Under the pieces are notes generated by a model. That model saw nothing but the letters and a program-made list of their open reading frames with translations, had not been told where the DNA came from and made no database searches. The position numbers were made by a program, and so were the translations under genes. From assembly GCF_000179635.2 (NCBI RefSeq), contig NC_014833.1, positions 150,001 through 182,000 of the forward strand: a stretch of DNA of 32,000 bases, read 5' to 3'. Origin of the DNA: Ruminococcus albus 7 = DSM 20455 (GTDB lineage Bacteria; Bacillota; Clostridia; Oscillospirales; Ruminococcaceae). The number at the start of each line of letters is the position of its first letter. The first letter of the stretch is position 1. Positions 11,395-23,773 of the stretch are shown in pieces.

Positions 11395-11421
11395 TGATTA
11401 ATCTTGCTTGGGAGTGAAATA

Positions 11422-12132
11422 ATGAAGATCGCAGTATGTGATGACGAAAAGATGTTTCGTAATGAAGTTATCATTCTGCTTAATAAATATGCAGAAGAGA
11501 ATAATATTATCCTTGATATAACCGAATTTGATGACGGCGGGAAGGTCGTGGCTGCCAAGACGGTTTTTGATATGATATTTCTCGATCATCAGATGAATGA
11601 ACTGAACGGACTGGATACTATAAAACGTATACGTGAAAAAAATATAGATACGAAAGTTGTTTTTGTAAGCAGTTATTCAGAGATAGTATTTGACAGCATG
11701 AAATACAATGCATTCAGGTTCATAGTAAAGCCTGTTACAAAGGATAAGCTTTATGAGGCTATGGATGCTGCACTTGAAATCAGCAGCAGCGAGCGCAAGC
11801 TGATAGTAAAGGATGAAGAGTATAATGAGAGCATAGTGGTGTATGAAAAGGATGTTATATACGCGCAGGCGGACAATGTATATACATACATAATAACAGC
11901 GGAAGGCTCGTTCAGGTATCCTTACAATCTTTCAACGCTTGAAGAGGAGCTGGATTCGGGGGGGTTTTTCAGGACGAACAGGTCTTATATAGTAAATCTT
12001 GAGCATATAAATTCCTACGATAAGACGGGTATCACCTTATCGAACGGACATAAAGCTGTGATATCAAGATCAAAGTACAAGGATTTCAACAATTGTTATC
12101 TCAATTATTTAAAGAGATCTTCATCAAGATGA
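11422..12132 (+). CDS. LytTR-family response regulator (AgrA/ComE type)
   Basis: Track ORF is 11404..12132. The preferred start is ATG 11422 (MKIAVCDDE...) after GGGAG. The receiver domain includes MIFLDHQM, and the C-terminal LytTR domain includes FFRTNRSYIVNLEHI. Confidence 0.9.
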   Translation: MKIAVCDDEKMFRNEVIILLNKYAEENNIILDITEFDDGGKVVAAKTVFDMIFLDHQMNELNGLDTIKRIREKNIDTKVVFVSSYSEIVFDSMKYNAFRFIVKPVTKDKLYEAMDAALEISSSERKLIVKDEEYNESIVVYEKDVIYAQADNVYTYIITAEGSFRYPYNLSTLEEELDSGGFFRTNRSYIVNLEHINSYDKTGITLSNGHKAVISRSKYKDFNNCYLNYLKRSSSR

Positions 12133-12190: not shown

Positions 12191-13516
12191 ATGGAAATCG
12201 TATTAAAAAATGTTAGGTTTATATTATTTATATCCGTGTATATTTTATATTTTGTGAATATACATAAAAGTGTTAAGTTGATTTCGGATGATAATAAGTT
12301 CAGAAAAATCAGCTATGCTGTCGCGGGCTTACATATTATTTTGAAAATATTATTAGAAACTGTTCCTTTTTCAAAACAAGTAGGAGATGTTATATGGCGG
12401 ATGGGAGTACCATTGCTTTGTCTGTCAGTATTCCTTTCACACAAACAGCATCTATTAAAAACTGTTTATGTAACATTACTCTATTCATCTCTTGAAGCGA
12501 GTCTGGGAACAGTGATAAATATACTAATTGATGTCATTGTTCCGATAAAATACAGGGATTATAGTGGAGTAGCATTATACTTTTTATTAAATCTGGCATA
12601 TTATTTTATATTGACAAGATATCTGACGCAAAAGGCGGAAGATTTGAGGCTGAGTTTGGAATTTATTAATAGAAAAACATATATATTCATTCTTATATAT
12701 GCAAGGATACTTTCAAAACTAATATCAGTTACCAGAGCTGGAGAAAATATGAAATTTACAAGTGTGAAGCTGTTGTTCTATGTCAAATTATATATTATAC
12801 CTATCTGTATAATTTCAATGTTTATCATAATCCTTTTGATATCAAACAGTATGTCCAAATTCTACTATAAAAGGTCAGCGGAATTGCTGGACAAGCAGCT
12901 GGATATGCAGGCTAAGTATTACGAAAAAATCGATGAGATGACTACGGATATCAGGAAATTCAGGCACGATTATAAAAATCACATGCATTGTCTGAAGTCG
13001 CTGCTGGGCAGCAAGAAAATAGATGATGCGCTGGAGTATCTGGATTCCATATCCGCTAATCCAACTATGAACAAAACATCATTCAAAAGCGGCAATACCA
13101 TAGCCGATGCGATACTAAACGATAAGGCTGCAATAGCAGCACATGAGAATTTCAGGCTGAATTTCTCGTGAGTGATCTCGGAAAAAGTATCGGCATTCGA
13201 TATATGCACCATTCTTTCAAATGCACTGGATAATTCCATAGAAGCCTGTCGAAGGCTGAAAAGTGCAGAGGATAGGTATATAGACGTAAACTGCGTGCTT
13301 AAAAATGATATGCAGATGATATGTATATCAAATCCATCGGATACTGATGATCCGGATCTTAAAACTTCAAAGGATAATAAAAATGAGCATGGCTTTGGTC
13401 TTTATAATATAAAGAAGACAGTTGATTCACTGGATGGAACAGTGAATATCTCACAGACCTCGCCTGTATTCGTCCTGGATGTAATGTTCAGGATAAAAAT
13501 GCCTGAAACGGCGTGA
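12191..13516 (+). pseudogene. AgrC/HPK10-type sensor histidine kinase interrupted by an in-frame TGA
   Basis: Track ORFs 12191..13171 and 13172..13516 are in the same frame, separated only by TGA at 13169-13171. The N-terminal part is a polytopic membrane sensor. The H-box is FRHDYKNHMHCL, the N-box SNALDNSIEA and the G-box HGFGLYNIKK. The stop falls between the H-box and the N-box. Confidence 0.8.
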
Positions 13517-13537
13517 TTTCGGAATAAATAACATAAA

Positions 13538-13569
13538 ACAGCAGTATGTAAAAAGTACTGCTGTTTTTT
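13538..13569 (+). terminator. Rho-independent terminator after the kinase gene
   Basis: Stem CAGCAGTA / TACTGCTG followed by a T-run of 6. Confidence 0.8.
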
Positions 13570-13655: not shown

Positions 13656-13688
13656 ATGAGTGTACCAAGACGAAGGGAGGTCAGAGAG

Positions 13689-13721
13689 ATGGATGAATAC
13701 TACGGCTGGAAATGGCATTGA
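13689..13721 (+). CDS. 10-codon upstream sORF MDEYYGWKWH (function unknown)
   Basis: AAGGGAGG (13673-13680) lies 8 nt before ATG 13689, and the stop TGA is at 13719-13721. The sORF sits in the leader of the rSAM operon. Confidence 0.3.
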   Translation: MDEYYGWKWH

Positions 13722-13776
13722 TGCTCAGTGAAATGAACTTGAATAAATTAATAAATAATATGTGGGGTTTTTCAAC

Positions 13777-15033
13777 ATGAGGAAATTTACAAAGAATCTG
13801 CTGTTCCTGCAGAATAAGGAGCAGGTGATAGTCGGCAACAAATGCGAATGTACTTTCCTGAAAATGAGCACAGAGTGCTACGATATACTGAACGGCTTTG
13901 TGAAGAGAGGTATAGGAAAGCATGAGTATGAAAAAATTTTTGAAGATAAAGAAGATAAGGAGTACTTCAGCGAGCTTCATGACAAGCTGGTTGAGAAAAA
14001 GATACTTGTTGATGTAAATGACAAGGAGCTCCTTACAGATTTCGATATACAGTGGGAAGTAACAAATCAGTGCAATCTGCACTGCAAGCACTGCATAGCA
14101 GATGCAGTTACTACCAAGACGCTGATAGCTGACAGAGATGAGATATATGCCATAGCCGATAAGATACTCGGCGTTAAGCCAAGGCTGATAACTGTCACTG
14201 GCGGTGAGCCTATGGTACTGCCGTTCTTCTTTGAACTCAGCGAGTACCTGAGAAAGAATACCCGCGGTGAGATGAACCTGATGACCAATGGCACTTACAT
14301 TACCGAAGAAAATGCAGCTAAGATAAAGGAACTTTATGATGCTGTATTCATAAGTGTTGACGGCTCGGATGAAAAGTCCTGCAGCGAGATAAGAGGAGCA
14401 GGGGTGTTTGGAAAGGTAATGGATGCCATCAAGTATCTGAAGGCGGCAGGAGTTAAGAATATATCCCTTTCCTTTGTACTTACAGCACAGAACAGAGAGC
14501 ATGAGAAGCCTTTCCTGAAGCTGTGCAGGGAGCTGGAAGTCAGCCCCATGGTGAGAACGTTTTCGCCCGTAGGAAGAGGCAAGGATCACAAGGACTGGTA
14601 TATCCAGGATGAATCGGTGGAAGACAATGATCCTGTTGATCCCGAGTTTGTAAAGAAGACAAAAGAGAACCAGCCTTACATCGAGTTTGGTGCCTGCGGC
14701 GGACGCTACGGTTCCTTTACGGTAAATGCAAAAGGAAATATGTTCCTGTGCGCACCCTATGAATGTTCCGAGAAACCTATCGGAAATATTCTCGAGGTTG
14801 ACGATATAAACAAGTATTTTTACGAAGAGGAATTCAGGAAAACAGAAAGCTATCTGAACTTTGAAAAGAAAATGCCTGAGAATTTCAAGAGATGTCAGGA
14901 GTGCAGTGTAAAGTACTTCTGCTGGCACTGTCCTTTCCTGTTCGAGCAGTCACTGAAAAACGAGAAGTCGTTTGATAACTACTGCAAGATCAGAAAAAAA
15001 GAGATCGGCTTTTCGCTTTGGGGTGAGATCTGA
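13777..15033 (+). CDS. Radical SAM/SPASM maturase with N-terminal RRE-like (PqqD-like) domain
   Basis: Track ORF is 13762..15033 with a GTG start; ATG 13777 (MRKFTKN...) is preferred. A pre-domain of about 95 aa precedes the CxxxCxxC motif (NQCNLHCKHC). The C-terminus is Cys-rich and SPASM-like (GACGG...LCAPYEC...CQECSVKYFCWHC). Confidence 0.9.
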   Translation: MRKFTKNLLFLQNKEQVIVGNKCECTFLKMSTECYDILNGFVKRGIGKHEYEKIFEDKEDKEYFSELHDKLVEKKILVDVNDKELLTDFDIQWEVTNQCNLHCKHCIADAVTTKTLIADRDEIYAIADKILGVKPRLITVTGGEPMVLPFFFELSEYLRKNTRGEMNLMTNGTYITEENAAKIKELYDAVFISVDGSDEKSCSEIRGAGVFGKVMDAIKYLKAAGVKNISLSFVLTAQNREHEKPFLKLCRELEVSPMVRTFSPVGRGKDHKDWYIQDESVEDNDPVDPEFVKKTKENQPYIEFGACGGRYGSFTVNAKGNMFLCAPYECSEKPIGNILEVDDINKYFYEEEFRKTESYLNFEKKMPENFKRCQECSVKYFCWHCPFLFEQSLKNEKSFDNYCKIRKKEIGFSLWGEI

Positions 15034-16037
15034 TGCACGTTGTATTTTGGACTACGAATGATTGCAACCTGAACTGCAGCTACTGCTACAACAGGATGAG
15101 CAATAATATAAAGAAAGAATATATGACCAGAGAGGTCGCAGATGCAGCGATAGATATGCTGACCAAGCTTGACTGCTGGAAAACTGCCGATGAGATCGCA
15201 GTACAGTTCCACGGCGGTGAGCCTCTCATGAATTGCGATATAATAGAGTATATCATGGAGCGTTTTGAAGCTCTGGTGCCTGCATCAAAGCTGTACTACG
15301 GAATGACTACCAACGGTACGCTCTATGATGACAGAAGAAAAAAGATAATCGATAAAATAAACGAACTATCGCTGAGCCTTGACGGCAAGGCGGAGATACA
15401 TGACCTGAACAGAAAGTTCGTAAGCGGCAAGGGTTCGTTTGATATCGTTATGGATACAGCCAGGGATATCAGCAAGAGAAAAGATGTCCGGCTGAGGATG
15501 ACTGTTACAAGAGATACTATCGGTGATCTTTGCGATACGGTCTGCTATTTCCTGGAGGAGGGTTTCAGACGGATAATACCCGTACTGGATATGTATGACT
15601 CTCACTGGAAGGACGAGGACGAGCCGATAATATTTGAGCAGTTCCGCAAGATAAAAGAATATATAGAAGAAAAAGACTATGGAGATGCCGTTATCTCGTA
15701 CGTTACCGAATCGGAATTTGTCCGCAAGGCAAAATGTACGGGCGGCGTGGAAAGTTTCCACTTCCTGCCTGACGGCAGCATCTATCCGTGTTCGTTGACA
15801 GTAGGTGACAGTTACTGGCTGCTGGGAAATGTGCTGGACACAGGGCTTGACAAAGCCAAGGTGGATGAGCTCCAGATGATAAACAACAAGGACACATCAA
15901 GCTGTACCGGCTGTGAGATGTATCACTACTGTGCAAGCTCAAGATGTAAACTTATAAATAAAAAGATAACAGGCGATTATTATACTGCCAGCAGTATAGC
16001 CTGTCTATGCAGCAGACTTGAATACGAGTTTGCTTAA
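15033..16037 (+). CDS. Second radical SAM/SPASM maturase (no RRE domain)
   Basis: The start overlaps the upstream stop (TGATG). The CxxxCxxC motif begins at residue 11 (NDCNLNCSYC). The C-terminal Cys cluster is KCTGG...YPCS...SSCTGCEMYHYCASSRC. Confidence 0.9.
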   Translation: MHVVFWTTNDCNLNCSYCYNRMSNNIKKEYMTREVADAAIDMLTKLDCWKTADEIAVQFHGGEPLMNCDIIEYIMERFEALVPASKLYYGMTTNGTLYDDRRKKIIDKINELSLSLDGKAEIHDLNRKFVSGKGSFDIVMDTARDISKRKDVRLRMTVTRDTIGDLCDTVCYFLEEGFRRIIPVLDMYDSHWKDEDEPIIFEQFRKIKEYIEEKDYGDAVISYVTESEFVRKAKCTGGVESFHFLPDGSIYPCSLTVGDSYWLLGNVLDTGLDKAKVDELQMINNKDTSSCTGCEMYHYCASSRCKLINKKITGDYYTASSIACLCSRLEYEFA

Positions 16038-16085: not shown

Positions 16086-16262
16086 ATGGAAATCAAGAAA
16101 ATCGACAATAAGGTAAAGCTCAATAACCAGAATGTAAAGGCTGAGAGAGACGAGTATGCTTGTCACCACGACTGCATCGAGTACTACTATTCCGGAAGCA
16201 CAGGCGCAAAGGGTTGCCGCAGAGGAAGCACTATTTCCGCTAAGACTACCCGCGCTTGGTAA
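16086..16262 (+). CDS. RiPP precursor A1 (58 aa)
   Basis: Not in the ORF track. AGGAGG lies 8 nt upstream. Sequence: MEIKKIDNKVKLNNQNVKAERDEYACHHDCIEYYYSGSTGAKGCRRGSTISAKTTRAW. Confidence 0.85.
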   Translation: MEIKKIDNKVKLNNQNVKAERDEYACHHDCIEYYYSGSTGAKGCRRGSTISAKTTRAW

Positions 16263-16348
16263 TCTTGGATCTTTTGGATAAAATACAAAAATCATAAGAA
16301 AACTATACGCACTAATACAATCTACATTTAATATAGGAGGATTTTACT

Positions 16349-16525
16349 ATGGAAATCAAGAAGATCAATGACAAGGTTAAGCTGAACGAAGAGAACGTAA
16401 AGGCAGAGAGAGACGAGTACGCTTGCCACCACGACTGCATCGAGTACTACTATACCGGAAGCACAGGCGCAAAGGGCTGCCGCAGAGGAAGCACTATTTC
16501 CGCTAAGACTACCCGCGCTTGGTAA
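16349..16525 (+). CDS. RiPP precursor A2 (58 aa)
   Basis: Not in the ORF track. AGGAGG RBS present. Sequence: MEIKKINDKVKLNEENVKAERDEYACHHDCIEYYYTGSTGAKGCRRGSTISAKTTRAW. Confidence 0.85.
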   Translation: MEIKKINDKVKLNEENVKAERDEYACHHDCIEYYYTGSTGAKGCRRGSTISAKTTRAW

Positions 16526-16611
16526 TCTTGGATCTTTTGGATAAAATACAAAAATCATAAGAAAACTATACGCACTAATACAATCTACATTTAATATAGG
16601 AGGATTTTACT

Positions 16612-16788
16612 ATGGAAATCAAGAAGATCAATGACAAGGTTAAGCTGAACGAAGAGAACGTAAAGGCAGAGAGAGACGAGTACGCTTGCCACCACGACTG
16701 CATCGAGTACTACTATTCCGGAAGCACAGGCGCAAAGGGCTGCTCCAGAAGAAGCACTATAACTGCTAAGACAACCCGCGCTTGGTAA
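16612..16788 (+). CDS. RiPP precursor A3 (58 aa)
   Basis: Not in the ORF track. AGGAGG RBS present. Sequence: MEIKKINDKVKLNEENVKAERDEYACHHDCIEYYYSGSTGAKGCSRRSTITAKTTRAW. Confidence 0.85.
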   Translation: MEIKKINDKVKLNEENVKAERDEYACHHDCIEYYYSGSTGAKGCSRRSTITAKTTRAW

Positions 16789-16919
16789 TCTTAGATCTTT
16801 GAATGCAATAATCATAAGAATACTATTCTAGCAATTCATAATAATACTATACGCACCAATACAATTTACTACTAATAACAAACAAAGTAATAATTTATAA
16901 AAAACAGGAGGATTTTATC

Positions 16920-17096
16920 ATGGAAATCAAAAAGATCAATGACAAGATTAAGCTGAACGAAGAGAATGTAAAGGCAGAGAGAGACGAGTACGCTTGCCAC
17001 CACGACTGCATCGAGTACTACTATACCGGTAGCACAGGTGCAAAGGGCTGCCGCAGAGGAAGCACTATTTCCGCTAAGACAACCCGTGCTTGGTAA
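16920..17096 (+). CDS. RiPP precursor A4 (58 aa)
   Basis: Not in the ORF track. AGGAGG RBS present. Sequence: MEIKKINDKIKLNEENVKAERDEYACHHDCIEYYYTGSTGAKGCRRGSTISAKTTRAW. The core is identical to A2. Confidence 0.85.
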   Translation: MEIKKINDKIKLNEENVKAERDEYACHHDCIEYYYTGSTGAKGCRRGSTISAKTTRAW

Positions 17097-17307
17097 TAAG
17101 CAGTCTGATTTAATGATGCGATAATATCGTATTAATGCAACAAAGCTACACTACAGTTTTATTATTCTGACACAGCAATAAAGTACTAATAACATAATCA
17201 AAAATCACAAACCGAAAAAATAACATTTTAAACAAGACTGCTTCGGTGTATTAAATATAAATATGGTAACAAACCAATATAAAATCTTATGAAAAGGAGT
17301 TGTTTTT

Positions 17308-17478
17308 ATGAAGGTACAGAAAATAACAGACAAAATCAAGCTCAGTGAGGAAAATGTAAAGGCTGAAGGCGGCGGCTGCCTTAAAGACTGTGCAGAGATA
17401 CAGTATACAGGCAAAAACTCAGCTAAGGGCTGCAGAAGGACCACAGTATATACAGCAAAGTACACTAATATGTGGTAA
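17308..17478 (+). CDS. RiPP precursor B1 (56 aa, divergent core)
   Basis: Not in the ORF track. AAGGAG lies 8 nt upstream. Sequence: MKVQKITDKIKLSEENVKAEGGGCLKDCAEIQYTGKNSAKGCRRTTVYTAKYTNMW. Confidence 0.8.
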   Translation: MKVQKITDKIKLSEENVKAEGGGCLKDCAEIQYTGKNSAKGCRRTTVYTAKYTNMW

Positions 17479-17506
17479 TGCAAAGCGTTGAAACGGAGAA
17501 AAAATC

Positions 17507-17686
17507 ATGGTGATCAAGAAGATCAAAGACAAGATAAAGCTTAGAGAAACAGTCAAGGCTGAAAGACTGGACCTTCAGGCTGACTTTATGCAGGACTGTG
17601 CTGAACAGACTTATGCGGGATATACCGCCAGAACAGGATGCAGAAGAAGAATGAATTACAGCGCAAAACTGTATTCAAGATTGTAA
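17507..17686 (+). CDS. RiPP precursor B2 (59 aa, divergent core)
   Basis: Not in the ORF track. GGAG lies 8 nt upstream. Sequence: MVIKKIKDKIKLRETVKAERLDLQADFMQDCAEQTYAGYTARTGCRRRMNYSAKLYSRL. Confidence 0.75.
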   Translation: MVIKKIKDKIKLRETVKAERLDLQADFMQDCAEQTYAGYTARTGCRRRMNYSAKLYSRL

Positions 17687-17729
17687 GCTTAAAGCAATTA
17701 TCTTATATTTCGACAGGAGGAAAAACAGC

Positions 17730-17897
17730 ATGAACATAAAGAAGCTTCTGGACAAAGTATTTGTAAAAGAGAATGTCAAAGCAGAAGGTATCTTTTCGGA
17801 TTTCAACTACGATTATGTCGGTTTTGATCCATGCAATAAGACCAACAAGATCAATCATAGGGAAAATATCACAGAGAAAAACAGAAAAAAGATTTGA
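17730..17897 (+). CDS. Leader-bearing peptide B3 (55 aa, single Cys, Lys-rich tail)
   Basis: Not in the ORF track. AGGAGG lies 9 nt upstream. Sequence: MNIKKLLDKVFVKENVKAEGIFSDFNYDYVGFDPCNKTNKINHRENITEKNRKKI. It shares the leader motif but not the core motif. Confidence 0.65.
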   Translation: MNIKKLLDKVFVKENVKAEGIFSDFNYDYVGFDPCNKTNKINHRENITEKNRKKI

Positions 17898-17929: not shown

Positions 17930-18919
17930 ATGAGAAAAGTTAAAGTTGCGATCATTGACAGCGGGATCAACTACAACATAGTTAATGACGATGTCAGAAA
18001 CTGCATAAAGACCGGATATTTAGTTCATGATGATGAAGCCAATACTGTTCAGGAGGTATCACCTTCCGAATTGTGTGATTTCAACGGGCATGGTACGGTA
18101 TGCGCTTCAATAGTAAACAGGATAGCGCCGGAAACGGAGATAATCCCTGTTTGTATATTGGGTAAGAACGGCAGATGCACTCCGGGCAAACTGGTAGCTG
18201 CACTGGAACTGGCCAAACGGCTCGATGTCCAGATCATCAATATGAGTCTCAGCTCAAATGATCTATTTATACGGCATAAACTGAAAAAGCTGACAAAGGA
18301 ACTTGAAGCGCAGGGAAAGATCTGTGTAGCTTCAAAGTCCAATGACAGACACATCAGTTTTCCGGCAGATTTTAAAAACGTTATAGGTGTTGTAGGCAGG
18401 ATCGACGTTTTTAATGACGGTTTTGAATACGACAGTCAGAAGAAGATACAGGTAACAGCCAGCGGAGCTACAGAGCTTATGGAATTCCATATGCCCGGTG
18501 CGAACTTCTTCAGAGGCAACAGCAGGGCGGCTGCGATATTCTCAGGCGTTCTTGCGGATGCTTACGCAAAAGGAAAGTTCAGCACAAAGGCAGAGGCGGA
18601 AGAGTATATGAGGTCTGAGTCCTGGGTGAGCGAAAAGTTTTACAGGTCTCCGGAGGATGATGAGAGCGATGAGAAGATCGTGAACAGGATCCTCACAAGA
18701 GTAAGTAAAATGATATCCGATGAGAGGATACGTGTTAAGCTCGCAGATGATCTTGAGCTGGTGTATACCAATTCTACTATCTATGATTATTACAAGATAA
18801 TCTATATGCTCGAAAATGAGTTTTCGTGCAGGATATTCGGCAAAGTCCCTGTATACAGGGTATATTTTCAGAAGATAAATTATCTCGGCAAACTGGTAAA
18901 GGAAGCACTCAATGAATAA
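17930..18919 (+). CDS. S8 (subtilisin-like) serine peptidase, no signal peptide; probable leader peptidase
   Basis: Catalytic blocks VAIIDSGIN (Asp), NGHGTVCAS (His), INMSLS (oxyanion Asn) and GNSRAAAIFSG (Ser). The N-terminus starts directly with the Asp block. A C-terminal extension of about 100 aa belongs to no family I recognise. Confidence 0.85.
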   Translation: MRKVKVAIIDSGINYNIVNDDVRNCIKTGYLVHDDEANTVQEVSPSELCDFNGHGTVCASIVNRIAPETEIIPVCILGKNGRCTPGKLVAALELAKRLDVQIINMSLSSNDLFIRHKLKKLTKELEAQGKICVASKSNDRHISFPADFKNVIGVVGRIDVFNDGFEYDSQKKIQVTASGATELMEFHMPGANFFRGNSRAAAIFSGVLADAYAKGKFSTKAEAEEYMRSESWVSEKFYRSPEDDESDEKIVNRILTRVSKMISDERIRVKLADDLELVYTNSTIYDYYKIIYMLENEFSCRIFGKVPVYRVYFQKINYLGKLVKEALNE

Positions 18920-20531
18920 TGAAATAAGGAAACTGCTCAGGATATGGAAACTTGACAGAATGAAGAAAGGTGTTTTCTTTACCCTGATGCTGATATCGGT
19001 GTTCTTGTCGATAGCCGTGCCAATGGTATTCGTTGACTTTGTAGATGTGGTCACGAAAGCGGCATCGATGAGTTCGCTGGTAAGATTGATAACAATATAT
19101 TTAGTACTTAACATTTCACAGATGTTTGTGGAGTTCGCGTTTGATTATTACTCATCCGTAAAGGAATTCGAGTTCGCACAGCATCTGAAATTTACAGCGC
19201 TGGACAGACTTTTCATGAAGGACGGAAGGTTCTTCGCCAATGAAAAGACGGGCGACCTTATGACGGTGGTAAATGATGATGCAGCAAAGCTGGCATCATT
19301 CGTATACAAAGCATACAAGGTGATCGTTTCACTGGTCCAGGCGATCGGCATAATGGGTGTCATGTTCTACTATGATGTGAAACTCACGCTGCTGCTGATC
19401 GTTATGATACCTATAACTCTGGCGGCTCAACAGAAGTTCGGAGATAAACTCAGGTATCTGGCGCTTGAGAACAGAAGAGATTACGGAGAGCAGAATGCTC
19501 TCACAGAGGAGTTCATATCAAATGCACCTGCGATGATAACATACGGTTTCCGCAGGAGCTTTCTCAACAAGTATGAACTTGCATCAGATGTGTTGAAAAG
19601 AAGCTTTAAAAAGCTCACACTGACAAATGGTTTTTCAAATCAGGCTATAGATATGATATCTACCATAAGCCTGATAGCGATAACTGCATTCGGCGGTTAT
19701 CAGGTATTTCAGAAGCAGATCTCAATGGGTGTAATGATAATATTCCTGCAGTACTGCACAAGGTTTATCGCACCGTTTGAGAACCTGGTATTCATGAAAG
19801 TAAGCTTTAATATGGTCATTCCTTCTCTTGACCACGTAGATGAAGTGCTGGGCGGAGATACTTGCGCAGACACTTCGGCAGGCAAGCAGATAGATGAGAT
19901 CGACAATATAAAGCTTGAAAATCTTACATTCGGGTACACCCGCGGAAAAAACATTCTCAACGGGCTGGATCTGGATTTTGAGAAGAACAAAAAATATTTG
20001 ATTTGCGGAAAAAGCGGTGCAGGCAAAACTACCATATTCAATCTGATCCTCGGATTGTGGCGGGCAACGTCGGGCAATATCTATATAAACGACGATGAGA
20101 TCGGCAGCATAGATCTTGAATCATTCAGGGACAGGATCTCACTGGTCTCGCAGAAAACGTTCTTCCTGCATGATACGATATATAATAATCTGACCAATGG
20201 AAGGGATATACCGGAAGAAAAGGTATGGGAAGCTCTGCGGTGTGTTGAACTTGACGATTTTGTCAGGGGCATGGAAAATGGTTTGGATACCATACTGGGT
20301 GATGATGGTATGACAATGTCCGGAGGACAGAGGCAGAGACTGGCAATAGCACGTTCAATGCTGAAACGATCGGATGTGGTAATATTCGATGAGCCGACTT
20401 CGGCACTTGATAAGAATACAGAGAAGATAATTGCGCGTTCCATAATGGGTATAAAGGATAAGATAATAATCATCGTATCCCACAGCAATTGTTTTTCGGA
20501 TCAGGTCGATCAGATATACAAGATCGGATAA
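18912..20531 (+). CDS. ABC exporter, fused permease-ATPase (no C39 peptidase domain)
   Basis: 539 aa. The N-terminal half is a 6-TM domain. Walker A is GKSGAGKTT, the signature MSGGQRQR and Walker B VVIFDEPTSALD. The start overlaps the peptidase gene by 8 nt. Confidence 0.9.
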   Translation: MNNEIRKLLRIWKLDRMKKGVFFTLMLISVFLSIAVPMVFVDFVDVVTKAASMSSLVRLITIYLVLNISQMFVEFAFDYYSSVKEFEFAQHLKFTALDRLFMKDGRFFANEKTGDLMTVVNDDAAKLASFVYKAYKVIVSLVQAIGIMGVMFYYDVKLTLLLIVMIPITLAAQQKFGDKLRYLALENRRDYGEQNALTEEFISNAPAMITYGFRRSFLNKYELASDVLKRSFKKLTLTNGFSNQAIDMISTISLIAITAFGGYQVFQKQISMGVMIIFLQYCTRFIAPFENLVFMKVSFNMVIPSLDHVDEVLGGDTCADTSAGKQIDEIDNIKLENLTFGYTRGKNILNGLDLDFEKNKKYLICGKSGAGKTTIFNLILGLWRATSGNIYINDDEIGSIDLESFRDRISLVSQKTFFLHDTIYNNLTNGRDIPEEKVWEALRCVELDDFVRGMENGLDTILGDDGMTMSGGQRQRLAIARSMLKRSDVVIFDEPTSALDKNTEKIIARSIMGIKDKIIIIVSHSNCFSDQVDQIYKIG

Positions 20532-20596: not shown

Positions 20597-20650
20597 ATAT
20601 AATGTTTGCCATGACATGATGAAAATATATGATAAGGAACGGTGATAGTA

Positions 20651-21310
20651 ATGGTAATTCAAACTCACGATCTGTGTAAGTATTACGGTGATGAAAGCAA
20701 TATGGTGAAGGCTCTTGACAAGGTGAACCTGAGCGTTGACAAGGGTGAACTGATAGGCATAATCGGCAAGTCGGGCAGCGGTAAGTCAACGCTGCTGAAT
20801 ATGCTGGGTGCGCTCGATCATCCCACGGGAGGAAGCATCATTATCGGCGGAGAGGATATCTCCAAGATGAACGATGAGCAGCTGACAAAGATGCGTCGTT
20901 CAAAGATCGGCTTCATTTTCCAGAACTACAATCTTATACCCGTACTGAATGTATACGAGAACATAGTTCTGCCTATACAGCTTGACGGAAAGAAGCCCAA
21001 CAATAAGTATATCGATACTATACTTGATGCACTGGAGATCTCACACAAGAAAAATTCTCTGCCTTCCTCCATGTCCGGCGGACAGCAGCAGAGAGTTGCC
21101 ATAGCAAGAGCTCTGGCAAACAAGCCCGAGATAGTTCTGGCTGATGAGCCTACGGGAAATCTCGATGAAGCTATGGGCGCAGAGGTAGTTGATATGCTCA
21201 AATTCATGAATAAGGAGTTTGACCAGACTATCATTGTAGTAACACACGATCAGGAAGTTGCATCACAGATGAACAGAGTGATTAGAGTAGTTGATGGGAG
21301 AGTGCAGTAA
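20651..21310 (+). CDS. ABC transporter ATP-binding protein (MacB/LolD/BceA-like)
   Basis: Track ORF is 20642..21310 with a GTG start; ATG 20651 is preferred. Walker A is GKSGSGKST, the signature MSGGQQQRVAIAR, Walker B IVLADEPTGNLD and the H-loop VVTHD. Confidence 0.9.
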   Translation: MVIQTHDLCKYYGDESNMVKALDKVNLSVDKGELIGIIGKSGSGKSTLLNMLGALDHPTGGSIIIGGEDISKMNDEQLTKMRRSKIGFIFQNYNLIPVLNVYENIVLPIQLDGKKPNNKYIDTILDALEISHKKNSLPSSMSGGQQQRVAIARALANKPEIVLADEPTGNLDEAMGAEVVDMLKFMNKEFDQTIIVVTHDQEVASQMNRVIRVVDGRVQ

Positions 21311-23773
21311 ATGATCAGAAAACTCGCGTTCAGGTCACTTATGGCAGAAAAGTTCAGATGTGTCTGTACTGTTATCGCCATGATACTGACTGCTCTGCTG
21401 TTTTCAACGCTGTTTACTACGGCGGCAGGGCTAAACAATGCCAATACCTATTATGAATTCAAAAAGCTGGGAACCACTGCCCATGTTATAGTAAAGGACT
21501 GGGACAAGGGCTATGGCAAAGAATTTGAAGCTATCAGGGGTCACGGACTTGTAAAAAAAGCAGGTTACCGCAGATTTTTGGGATATGCAGTAAACAGCGG
21601 TATCAAATACAATGTTGAAGTCAGCTACATGGGCGCAGATGAGGCAGAGCTTGACTACTACACACCCACAAGCGGAAAACTCCCCGTTGAAGCAAACGAG
21701 ATAGCTGTCGATACGACTACTCTTGCTGCACTTGGCGTGGAGAAGAAGGTAGGCACACCCGTCAGCATCGACCTTGATGTAAGCGGCAAGACCGTTACCG
21801 AGGAATTCGTGCTTTCGGGCTGGTTCGAGATAAACAAGGCTTATTCTGTAAAGATAGGTCAGATAATAACCTCCGAAAAATACAGCGATATCTGGGACAG
21901 CAAGTTTGAAACCGACACCGTGAACGGAACGAGCGATGTATCAATTCTGCTGAGTGATGGCTATGATATCGAAGGTGAAACAGAGCAGATTTTCAATGAT
22001 GTTGGTCTTGCATATTCTCAGGATATCATATCTGTGAATCCCGGTTATAATGTCAGCAGTGAAACGATGTCAAGCGAAACAATGGTTACCCTGATAGTAG
22101 GTATACTCGTTATCGTACTTATCGGTTATCTTATCATCAACAACATTTTCTATATCTCGGCAAGAAAAGATGCAAAGCAGTTCGGCAGACTGAAGACTAT
22201 CGGTATGTCAAACAAACATCTGGCAGCCTTTGTAAGGACTCAGGCATTTATAATGCTTGCTGTCGCAGTTCCCCTTGGTATAGTAGGCGGATATTTTATG
22301 GGCAAACTTATACTGCCTGCGATACTGCGCCAGACTGCCTATGATTCTGTCGCTGATGATACAGTCATATCAGGCGGAGTTATCGCCCTGATACTTGCAG
22401 CAGCAGCGCTGTTCGTTGTGATAACTACACTGGTAAGTATAAACGGACCTATAAGAATGATAAAGAAGCTTTCGCCTATCGAATCGACAAGGATAGAGCT
22501 CAAGGGCTATAAGAGCACAAGAAAATCAAGCGACGGCAGCAAGACCCACAAATTTGCAAAATATAACATCCTGCGCAACAAGAAGAGCCTTGCGATGCTG
22601 CTCGTAAGCATATCACTTCCCGTACTGCTGGTAATAGTTTCATACGATGCACTCAACAGCTTTGATATGGATAAGTACCTTTCGACTATACTCGCATCTG
22701 ATTACACTGTAGCATCATCGGATTATTACAAGAATGACTATATCGACAATGAAAACAATGTAAAGACACTTGATGCATCGGTAGTTGAAGAGATAAAAAA
22801 CTGCGGTTTTGTAGAAGAAGGTTCGATAGTATACGGTGATATGGCTAATGAATATGCAAGTGTAAAGGAGATTCAGATCCCGGAGGGCGATGTGTATACA
22901 CTTGACCTTTATGGTTCAGAAGAATTTACAATTGATAAGTCGCTTATCATCGAGGACAATATCGACATGGCAAAATTCAAGGACGGTACAGGTATCGTTG
23001 AGGGCTGCTGGCTGACATCCGAGGGAGAGATCTACCCCGGTACAAGTCAATTCAACCAGGGCGACACTGTTACTATAACAGGTGCAGACGGAAAAGAGCA
23101 TACCTATACAGTCTTAGGTCACATGAATGTTGCTCTTGGTGCCAAAAAGACAGGTATATCAAAAGGCGGCATCACCTGCGAGCTTTATATGAATACTGCG
23201 CAGTATGAGCAGGTAACAGGCAATCAGAACATAATGTCCTATGAATTCAACGTAAAGAACGGCATGGAAAAGGAAGCTGAAAAATACATCAAGGGCATGA
23301 CAGAGGCTGATAGCTCAATAAATTATCAGTCTAAATATTCTCTTGCCGCTGATTTTGCATCAATGAAGCTTCTGGTAAAACTGATATGCACTCTGCTGTG
23401 CGTGGTGCTTACATTTATCGCTGTAATGAATCTTATCAACGTATTTGTATCAAGTATAATGGTAAGAGAAAAGGAGATTGCGACACTGAAGAGCATCGGC
23501 ATGACGAGAGGTCAGCTGAGAAAGATGCTGTTCTGGGAAATATTCTACTACAACGGCACAGCGTTTATAATAGCAGCTGTACTTTCGCTGGTACTGTCGC
23601 CAACGGTTTTCAAAAGCGTTTTCAACGAATTCCCGTTCCTGACCTTCCGTATGAACTGGATGTCATACCCTGCGATAATAGTAGTTATAATGTTTGTAGG
23701 TATAATGACTGTTATATGTGTTGAGAACAGGATATCTAAAATGAACATCCCCGAAGAATTAAAGACTGCGTAA
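21311..23773 (+). CDS. FtsX-family ABC permease with two FtsX modules (BceB/MacB-like); candidate self-immunity
   Basis: 820 aa. The start immediately follows the ATPase stop. Two TM clusters each carry the FtsX signature (...ARKDAKQFGRLKTIGMSNKHL... and ...VREKEIATLKSIGMTRGQLRKML...), separated by large soluble loops. Confidence 0.85.
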   Translation: MIRKLAFRSLMAEKFRCVCTVIAMILTALLFSTLFTTAAGLNNANTYYEFKKLGTTAHVIVKDWDKGYGKEFEAIRGHGLVKKAGYRRFLGYAVNSGIKYNVEVSYMGADEAELDYYTPTSGKLPVEANEIAVDTTTLAALGVEKKVGTPVSIDLDVSGKTVTEEFVLSGWFEINKAYSVKIGQIITSEKYSDIWDSKFETDTVNGTSDVSILLSDGYDIEGETEQIFNDVGLAYSQDIISVNPGYNVSSETMSSETMVTLIVGILVIVLIGYLIINNIFYISARKDAKQFGRLKTIGMSNKHLAAFVRTQAFIMLAVAVPLGIVGGYFMGKLILPAILRQTAYDSVADDTVISGGVIALILAAAALFVVITTLVSINGPIRMIKKLSPIESTRIELKGYKSTRKSSDGSKTHKFAKYNILRNKKSLAMLLVSISLPVLLVIVSYDALNSFDMDKYLSTILASDYTVASSDYYKNDYIDNENNVKTLDASVVEEIKNCGFVEEGSIVYGDMANEYASVKEIQIPEGDVYTLDLYGSEEFTIDKSLIIEDNIDMAKFKDGTGIVEGCWLTSEGEIYPGTSQFNQGDTVTITGADGKEHTYTVLGHMNVALGAKKTGISKGGITCELYMNTAQYEQVTGNQNIMSYEFNVKNGMEKEAEKYIKGMTEADSSINYQSKYSLAADFASMKLLVKLICTLLCVVLTFIAVMNLINVFVSSIMVREKEIATLKSIGMTRGQLRKMLFWEIFYYNGTAFIIAAVLSLVLSPTVFKSVFNEFPFLTFRMNWMSYPAIIVVIMFVGIMTVICVENRISKMNIPEELKTA

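Follow-up and report, generated by a model that had tools for sequence, protein, structure and literature searches.

We describe a pair of radical S-adenosylmethionine (SAM)/SPASM maturases, here called M1 and M2, that are encoded next to each other in a 32,000-nucleotide stretch of the Ruminococcus albus 7 genome (contig NC_014833.1, positions 150,001–182,000 of the forward strand). We refer to this whole stretch as the window and number positions from its first letter. M1 contains an N-terminal domain with the predicted fold of a recognition element (RRE) for RiPPs, peptides synthesized by the ribosome and modified after translation; M2 starts directly ahead of its radical SAM cluster motif and has no such domain. 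The pair, together with its precursor, peptidase and exporter genes, belongs to an uncharacterised family of quorum-regulated radical SAM RiPP clusters. We propose that M1 and M2 are two catalytic parts of one conserved maturase module, in which M2 depends on the RRE of M1 or on its prior action, a reading that we regard as evenly poised between right and wrong.

Two overlapping genes for intact radical SAM/SPASM enzymes

M1 is read from ATG 13777. An alternative GTG at 13762 would add five residues, and homologues begin MRKFT. The first cysteine of the CxxxCxxC motif is preceded by 98 residues in M1, and the motif occupies residues 11–18 of M2; the GGE motif lies at residue 142 of M1 and residue 61 of M2. 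The junction between the genes reads ATC TGA TG CAC, with the M1 stop (15031–15033) and the M2 start (15033–15035) sharing one base and a Shine–Dalgarno sequence (GGGGTGAG) positioned 5–6 nt upstream of the M2 start. The identical junction is found in three other R. albus-type genomes. A preliminary description of this DNA had placed the M2 motif at residue 11 and reported a TGATG overlap, both of which were borne out by our check of reading frames and motifs. Its figure of about 95 residues ahead of the M1 motif captured the N-terminal extension and was slightly short of the actual 98.

Each enzyme has seven SPASM cysteines, arranged in M1 as C307-x12-G-x4-C325, C373-x2-C376-x5-C382-x2-C385 and C403, and in M2 as C235-x12-G-x4-C253, C291-x2-C294-x5-C300-x4-C305 and C324. 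This is enough for two auxiliary clusters per enzyme, which answers the call of the preliminary description for a count of the auxiliary-cluster cysteines. Both proteins match the Pfam families Radical_SAM, Fer4_12 and SPASM, the last with 23.4 bits for M2 (above the cut-off of 21.5) and 20.3 bits for M1 (just below it). The CxxxCxxC and GGE motifs and the seven SPASM cysteines are invariant in both families (27 homologues of M1 and 40 of M2), down to about 30% identity. Judged from these residues, both enzymes look catalytically competent. The pair is not a chance feature, since dozens of full-length homologues exist for both open reading frames (ORFs). We also considered M2 as a truncated pseudogene and rejected this, because its start is common to the 40 homologues and its catalytic residues are invariant.

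The N-terminal domain of M1 has a predicted RRE fold

The structural statements made here rest on AlphaFold2 models. Modelled alone, residues 1–89 of M1 (predicted local distance difference test score, pLDDT, 93) form strands at 2–4, 8–12, 16–21 and 26–31, followed by helices at 32–43, 48–54 and 58–73. The same strands and helices are present in the full-length model (pLDDT 88.7). This layout agrees with the RRE architecture of a three-stranded sheet followed by three helices within some 80–90 residues. A VIA-align search with the domain against 48,161 representative PDB chains returned RREs at its four best ranks: TigE residues 6–95 (Z 9.3, root-mean-square deviation 2.6 Å, 86 aligned residues), a lasso peptide B1 protein with leader (6jx3; Z 8.9), TbiB1 with leader (Z 8.4) and the PbtF RRE (Z 8.0). 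ThcOx, PqqD (Z 6.3), MibB, MccB, LynD, CteB and NisB follow at lower ranks. Foldseek likewise placed the RREs of TbiB1, LynD/TruD, TigE, ThcOx and PbtF at the top; among its first 24 listed ranks, 23 are RRE-bearing RiPP enzymes and one is a de novo designed protein, with a best E-value of only 5e-3.

When the full-length M1 model was compared with solved structures, the alignment began at model residue 7 for CteB and at residue 1 for TigE. With the M1 family profile it starts at residue 44 of CteB and at residue 25 of TigE, in each case within the enzyme's RRE. Pfam gave no match to M1 residues 1–95 at E ≤ 10. The RRE assignment therefore draws on predicted structure and on profile alignment into the CteB and TigE RREs, because sequence models give no PqqD or RRE match. 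On this basis, residues 1–89 of M1 are predicted to have the winged-helix, PqqD-like fold of an RRE. The preliminary description had called the M1 N-terminus RRE-like and named the lack of a winged-helix fold as the finding that would speak against it; AlphaFold2, Foldseek and VIA-align all place that fold there.

No second RRE was found in the cluster: none of the cluster proteins tested has a Pfam RRE domain, the tail of the S8 peptidase resembles an acyl carrier protein (ACP), and the downstream genes encode transporter parts.

Absence of the RRE is a trait of the M2 family

M2 aligns to CteB residues 103–439 (E 1.9e-33) and the M2 family profile to CteB 101–444 (E 1.9e-63), a stretch that begins only beyond the CteB RRE. 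Every one of the 40 family members in the alignment starts about 10 residues ahead of the cluster motif. Across 21 M1/M2 pairs taken from different genomes, the CxxxCxxC motif falls at residues 85–133 in M1 and at residues 11–37 in M2, the larger M2 values (up to 37) stemming from a deliberately over-extended choice of start. The CteB alignment and the 40 members thus leave no room for an RRE in M2 or anywhere in its family, as the preliminary description had claimed for M2 itself.

In a FastTree phylogeny of the catalytic parts, the M2 sequences group as one clade (support 0.994), the SCIFF-type enzymes with RREs lie apart from it (support 0.995), and both are far from the M1 sequences. RRE-less enzymes of 354–375 aa group beside the M2 clade with a weak support of 0.40. 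We do not claim that the RRE-less state is ancestral: at that support, the grouping gives no direction of gain or loss.

Some of these neighbours occur in a different setting. At locus L151 (5284–8253), and also at L152–L154, an RRE-less M2 relative of 375 aa occurs by itself. Its neighbours are two lipoprotein-like genes, paralogues with a GSGSFGC-x-SV-x-PP-x-FL stretch conserved between them. Loci of this type may represent a protein-modifying radical SAM system rather than a RiPP system.

M2 was found only in the company of M1

The gene contexts described here come from sampled genomes rather than a full census. In a sample of 399 genomes of the class, and with the genome of the window set aside, relatives of M1 (E ≤ 1e-30) are present in four genomes and relatives of M2 (E ≤ 1e-45) in exactly the same four. 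In each of these, M1 and M2 are adjacent and are followed by a precursor gene, an S8 peptidase and an ATP-binding cassette (ABC) exporter. A second set comprises 112 genomes of one family, probably Peptostreptococcaceae, of which 19 contain an M2-family gene (E ≤ 1e-79, ORFs of 335–381 aa). An M1-family gene lies within 2.5 kb of M2 in 19/19 of these genomes and is directly adjacent in 17. One further genome of the family has M1 next to an M2 fragment cut by the end of the contig, and one has an M1-type gene without M2. A metagenome scan with the M2 alignment used generic radical SAM patterns and returned mostly unrelated SPASM enzymes; only contig L023 was informative, with the gene order M1–M2–M1'. 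An M2-family gene without an M1-family gene was never found in the 24 genomes and one metagenome contig.

The spacing between M1 and M2 ranges from overlap to 7–18 bp in most loci; it is 46–107 bp in distant loci and once 2.5 kb. M1 and M2 have diverged closely in step (20 pairs; Mantel r 0.92, p ≤ 2e-4), a correlation that reflects joint inheritance and says nothing of contact. The strict co-occurrence, for its part, supports functional dependence of M2 on M1.

R. albus has only M1 and M2, without a third radical SAM/SPASM gene. A third gene of this kind is present at L013, L014, L023, L137, L138, L140, L141, L143 and L145–L147, where it lies directly after M2 or a few kilobases away.

M1 and M2 come from different SPASM lineages

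Among NCBIfam models, M2 scores highest against PapB (NF047865, 177.4 bits against a cut-off of 340), the SCIFF maturase (TIGR03974, 141.7 against 425), the CXXX-repeat maturase and QhpD (111 against 453). These four enzymes all make thioethers from cysteine. The catalytic part of M1 best matches MftC and StsB, at about 94 bits and far under the cut-offs (StsB NF045574, 93.6 against 625). SkfB is the best single-sequence PDB match of M1 (E 6e-7) and its top VIA-align structure (Z 23), and CteB is its top match by profile. The SkfB match indicates relatedness only, and by score M1 does not qualify as an StsB-family sactisynthase. The second-best solved relative of M2 is anSME. Sequence comparison thus places M1 near SkfB, StsB and MftC and M2 near CteB, PapB and QhpD, that is, in different SPASM lineages, so that the two are not recent duplicates.

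PapB attaches cysteine to a downstream Asp or Glu, at the carbon that neighbours the carboxylate, and copes with 0–6 spacer residues between the two (PMC9413430, PMC12373016). This Cys-X0-6-Asp specificity matches the Cys-x-x-Asp of the precursors described below, and we therefore propose M2 as a putative former of Cys-to-Asp thioethers.

Precursor peptides share a leader motif and a CxxDC core

The R. albus precursors have leaders of the form M-x-IKKI..K that end in VKAE, and five of the seven peptides in the window have a CxxDC core. Among 31 candidate precursors from more than 20 loci, all share a KKI-type leader motif near the N-terminus, 29 contain CxxDC, 22 have exactly three cysteines, and 20 end in Tyr or Trp. 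The conserved elements are accordingly CxxDC, one further cysteine and a C-terminal Tyr or Trp. The leader junction outside R. albus is V/I-Q-A/G-D/Q, as opposed to VKAE in R. albus. The conserved KKI-type leader is a candidate ligand of the predicted M1 RRE. With CxxDC, 29/31 precursors also provide what a PapB-type substrate has, a cysteine followed by a downstream Asp or Glu, which makes the Asp of this motif a candidate cross-link site.

The R. albus peptides have a YYY run that is not kept in precursors from elsewhere, which makes it weak ground on which to propose a tyrosine cross-link. The preliminary description had suggested two chemically different cross-links, for example a thioether and a Tyr-based link. 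The different SPASM lineages of M1 and M2 fit two chemistries; the lack of conservation of the YYY run leaves the tyrosine example poorly founded.

The last two peptide genes of the window (17507–17897) have kept the leader and lost CxxDC, one encoding two cysteines and the other one; they may be decoys, signals or decaying copies. Five-cysteine precursors with a doubled motif, C-x-Y-D/N-C-C-x-D-C, occur at L141, L143 and L144, which belong to one genus, and do not track with the number of radical SAM genes at the locus.

Organization of the cluster and its regulatory region

The features of the cluster are listed in Table 1. From M1 through M2 to the first peptide gene, no site resembling a terminator was detected. 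The window belongs to a genome of 4.48 Mb in five contigs. The closest public relatives of the window are Ruminococcus albus AR67 and KH2T6, and a protein search with M1 returned three near-identical R. albus loci. The LytTR regulator and kinase genes accompany most related loci.

Table 1. Features of the M1–M2 cluster, in window positions
Feature	Position	Strand	Basis or remark
LytTR-type response regulator	11404..12132	+	Pfam Response_reg and LytTR; same gene present in related clusters
AgrC/SpoOB-type histidine kinase	12191..13516	+	Pfam SPOB_a (first part) and HATPase_c_5 (second part); in-frame TGA at 13169–13171
Terminator-like hairpin	13535..13567	+	13-bp stem followed by a T run; lies between the regulators and the maturase operon
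M1, radical SAM/SPASM maturase with predicted N-terminal RRE, 418 aa	13777..15033	+	AlphaFold2 model, pLDDT 88.7
Predicted RRE domain of M1 (residues 1–89)	13777..14043	+	AlphaFold2 pLDDT 93 and fold searches
CxxxCxxC radical SAM cluster motif of M1 (residues 99–106)	14071..14094	+	Invariant in 27 homologues
SPASM region of M1, seven invariant Cys (C307 to C403)	14695..14985	+	
TGATG stop/start overlap of M1 and M2	15031..15035	+	Conserved in L001, L002 and L003
M2, radical SAM/SPASM maturase without RRE, 334 aa	15033..16037	+	Aligns to CteB 103–439
CxxxCxxC motif of M2 (residues 11–18)	15063..15086	+	Invariant in 40 homologues
SPASM region of M2, seven invariant Cys (C235 to C324)	15735..16004	+	
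Seven precursor-peptide genes, 55–59 aa, each with its own Shine–Dalgarno sequence	16086..17897	+	
Subtilisin-like S8 peptidase (QhpE-like), likely leader peptidase	17930..18919	+	Pfam Peptidase_S8; conserved in related loci
ABC exporter, permease and ATPase fused, no peptidase domain	18912..20531	+	Pfam ABC_membrane and ABC_tran
ABC ATPase and FtsX-type permease, possibly immunity or export	20642..23773	+	ATPase kept in related loci, 45–53% identity

The in-frame TGA of the kinase gene sits between the phospho-acceptor part and the ATPase domain, with the same reading frame on both sides. The corresponding codon is GGA or GGC (Gly) in AR67, KH2T6 and a related metagenome-assembled genome, where the ORF is intact and 439 aa long, so the TGA is best explained as a nonsense substitution or a sequencing error in this strain. 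Recoding of the TGA was considered and rejected, because TGA also serves as the stop codon of M1 and the codon at this site is Gly in the relatives. The nonsense codon may leave the operon uninduced in this strain.

Upstream of M1, a leader region at 13661–13721 contains a strong Shine–Dalgarno sequence (AAGGGAGG) and a ten-codon ORF. The 21 nt around this Shine–Dalgarno sequence are 100% identical in three relatives, and the body of the ORF did not align; the conserved element may be an RNA or regulatory sequence rather than a peptide gene.

The S8 protein scores 99.7 bits against NCBIfam QhpE, under the cut-off of 165. Its C-terminal ~100 residues (about 228–329; 18590–18916) have no Pfam match, and their ESM Atlas model resembles an ACP-like (phosphopantetheine-binding) helical bundle (TM 0.61–0.67).

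Discussion

A mechanism consistent with these findings would begin with binding of the KKI-type leader by the M1 RRE, which would hold the precursor in place. M1 would then make one cross-link from one of the three cysteines, its nearest characterised relatives (SkfB, StsB and CteB) being thioether synthases. M2 would work on the same tethered peptide, either within a stable M1–M2 complex, as in TrnC–TrnD, or directly after M1, and would make a Cys-to-Asp (β-carbon) thioether inside CxxDC in the manner of PapB on Cys-Xn-Asp. Cleavage by the S8 peptidase behind the VKAE-type junction would free the product of its leader, and the ABC transporter would export it. A more specific form of this proposal, which we put forward tentatively and hold to be rather doubtful in its entirety, is that M1 and M2 form a heteromer in which one RRE feeds a sactisynthase-like and a ranthisynthase-like active site. 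The product would be a hybrid peptide with two chemically distinct cross-links around CxxDC, both of them thioethers or one a thioether and the other of another kind, and would define a new RiPP class under Agr-like two-component control in R. albus, Butyrivibrio, Paenibacillus and probable Peptostreptococcaceae.

Several observations weigh against a single interdependent module. The four RRE-less relatives of M2 that we examined stand alone beside lipoprotein-like genes, without M1 or peptide genes, so that absence of an RRE is not unique to M2 and such relatives can evidently work without M1. The ChlB radical SAM domain was crystallised as a construct whose chain has no N-terminal RRE, with the leader region of the ChlB substrate bound to it (PDB 9gm3 and 9gmc). 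Any two genes that share a mobile cluster should co-occur and diverge in step, and neither feature demonstrates physical contact. Support for the M1 RRE from sequence alone is weak: Pfam PqqD (PF05402) matches 0/27 members of the M1 family, and hhalign gives 5.9% probability for the M1 N-domain against the N-domains of SCIFF maturases, although the two align in register. The chemistry assigned to both enzymes is an extrapolation, as M2 lies far under the PapB and SCIFF cut-offs and M1 far under that of StsB. Finally, about half of the related clusters encode a third enzyme, a paralogue of M1 with its own N-terminal domain of ~100 residues, and 'one enzyme, one cross-link' may be too simple a scheme for peptides that have the same three cysteines.

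The ChlB structures bear on the alternative in which M1 and M2 act independently and in sequence, with no stable complex. M2 would then recognize the precursor itself, through a groove of its catalytic domain that takes the leader or through the core, perhaps only after the M1 cross-link is in place, and the M1 RRE would serve M1 alone. The ChlB construct in 9gm3 aligns from its first residues to about residue 82 of M1. Of the same tenor are the lack of an RRE in anSME, the grouping of the 354–375-aa RRE-less enzymes, some of them stand-alone, by the M2 clade, and the M1–M2 gaps of distant loci, which imply that tight translational coupling is not universal. A self-sufficient enzyme should sometimes be encoded alone, however, and M2 never is in the 24 genomes and one metagenome contig. 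Independent action, the main rival reading, is in our judgement on the unlikely side. It overlaps with the proposed module, because a fixed order of action still implies functional dependence, and the two differ only in the existence of a stable complex. The preliminary description had offered three options, namely a heteromer that borrows the RRE, sequential action on an already modified peptide, or two different cross-links; dependence of M2 on M1 is backed by co-occurrence, and self-recognition by an RRE-less SPASM enzyme, as in ChlB, has to be added as a fourth.

One of the two enzymes could instead be mainly a scaffold or helper whose own radical chemistry is dispensable, with all cross-links made at one active site. 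Thuricin CD offers a parallel, in that only the radical SAM activity of TrnC is strictly required although TrnC and TrnD are both active enzymes (PMC12093266). That CxxxCxxC, GGE and the seven SPASM cysteines are invariant across the 27 and 40 homologues speaks for catalysis being under selection in M1 as well as in M2, and their separate lineages mean that they are not recent duplicates; we consider a scaffold role improbable. It is more improbable still, to the point that we give it very little credence, that M2 modifies a cluster-encoded or cell-envelope protein in the manner of anSME rather than the seven peptides: the stand-alone 375-aa relatives beside paralogous lipoprotein-like genes with a conserved cysteine motif, with no precursors or M1 nearby, and the rank of anSME among solved relatives would suit such a role, but M2 always lies within a precursor/peptidase/exporter operon directly after M1, its best family matches (PapB, SCIFF and CXXX-repeat maturases) are peptide maturases, and the precursors contain the Cys-x-x-Asp that this lineage cross-links.

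The nearest experimental precedent for the proposed module is TrnC/TrnD of thuricin CD, a sactibiotic of Bacillus thuringiensis. Neither of these enzymes works well alone; they bind each other tightly, more so when the precursor is present, and only TrnC has a canonical RRE (PMC12093266). M1/M2 resemble them in having two radical SAM/SPASM enzymes in one RiPP cluster with a canonical RRE, in M1 a predicted one, on one of the two. Several differences are apparent. TrnD keeps a non-canonical N-terminal domain that mediates contact, whereas M2 has none; TrnC and TrnD are functionally similar sactisynthases, whereas M1 and M2 come from different SPASM lineages; the thuricin CD precursors lack CxxDC; and the complex is known for TrnC/TrnD, while M1/M2 are known from genes and models.

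PapB, the ranthipeptide maturase of freyrasin, is the best NCBIfam match of M2 across the whole catalytic and SPASM part. The published work attributes to PapB an RRE that is presumed to dock the leader (PMC12373016, PMC9413430). PapB acts alone, whereas M2 lacks an RRE, is always paired with M1 and scores below the PapB cut-off. CteB, the thermocellin maturase (PDB 5WGG), is a SPASM enzyme that has two auxiliary clusters and forms thioethers; it is the closest solved structure to M2 and the top profile match of M1. The N-terminal RRE that CteB itself possesses (residues ~1–100) is absent in M2 and has a predicted counterpart in M1, and SCIFF precursors are unlike those described here. M2 falls outside the SCIFF maturases by score, by the missing N-terminal RRE and by its separate clade in the tree.

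In PqqE/PqqD, MftC/MftB and StsB/StsC, a SPASM enzyme without a fused RRE relies on an RRE from another polypeptide (PMC9389541, PMC10288494). The RRE in those systems is a small stand-alone protein, whereas the only RRE predicted here is fused to a second intact radical SAM enzyme. QhpD/QhpE combine a SPASM enzyme that forms Cys-to-Asp/Glu thioethers with a subtilisin-like leader peptidase, and M2 matches QhpD as the S8 protein matches QhpE. The scores of M2 and the S8 protein are far under the cut-offs, however; the QhpC substrate is an enzyme subunit rather than a secreted peptide; and the region of the NCBIfam QhpD model that M2 matches starts only after ~95 positions.

Our literature search found no paper that characterises this cluster or peptide family. 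In a survey based on genome mining, Rumal_0164 of R. albus 7 appears as a putative sactipeptide locus (Letzel et al. 2014); this is probably the same cluster. RiPP clusters with two radical SAM enzymes are known, as are RREs supplied in trans. Apparently new is that an RRE-fused enzyme is obligately paired with another that differs from it and has no RRE at all, an arrangement of which we found no description.

RiPP enzymology usually takes it for granted that every leader-dependent maturase has a recognition element to itself, whether built in or recruited. The M1–M2 module is conserved, apparently obligate and phylogenetically broad, and thus represents a natural system for asking how one docking domain serves two active sites, a question that, to our knowledge, has so far been addressed experimentally only for TrnC/TrnD. 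If M2 proved to be leader-independent, an RRE-less PapB-like thioether ligase of this kind could serve peptide engineering. The module also marks an uncharacterised family of CxxDC-core peptides among Clostridia of the rumen and gut, one group of which probably belongs to Peptostreptococcaceae; the products of this family could be antimicrobial or signalling molecules.

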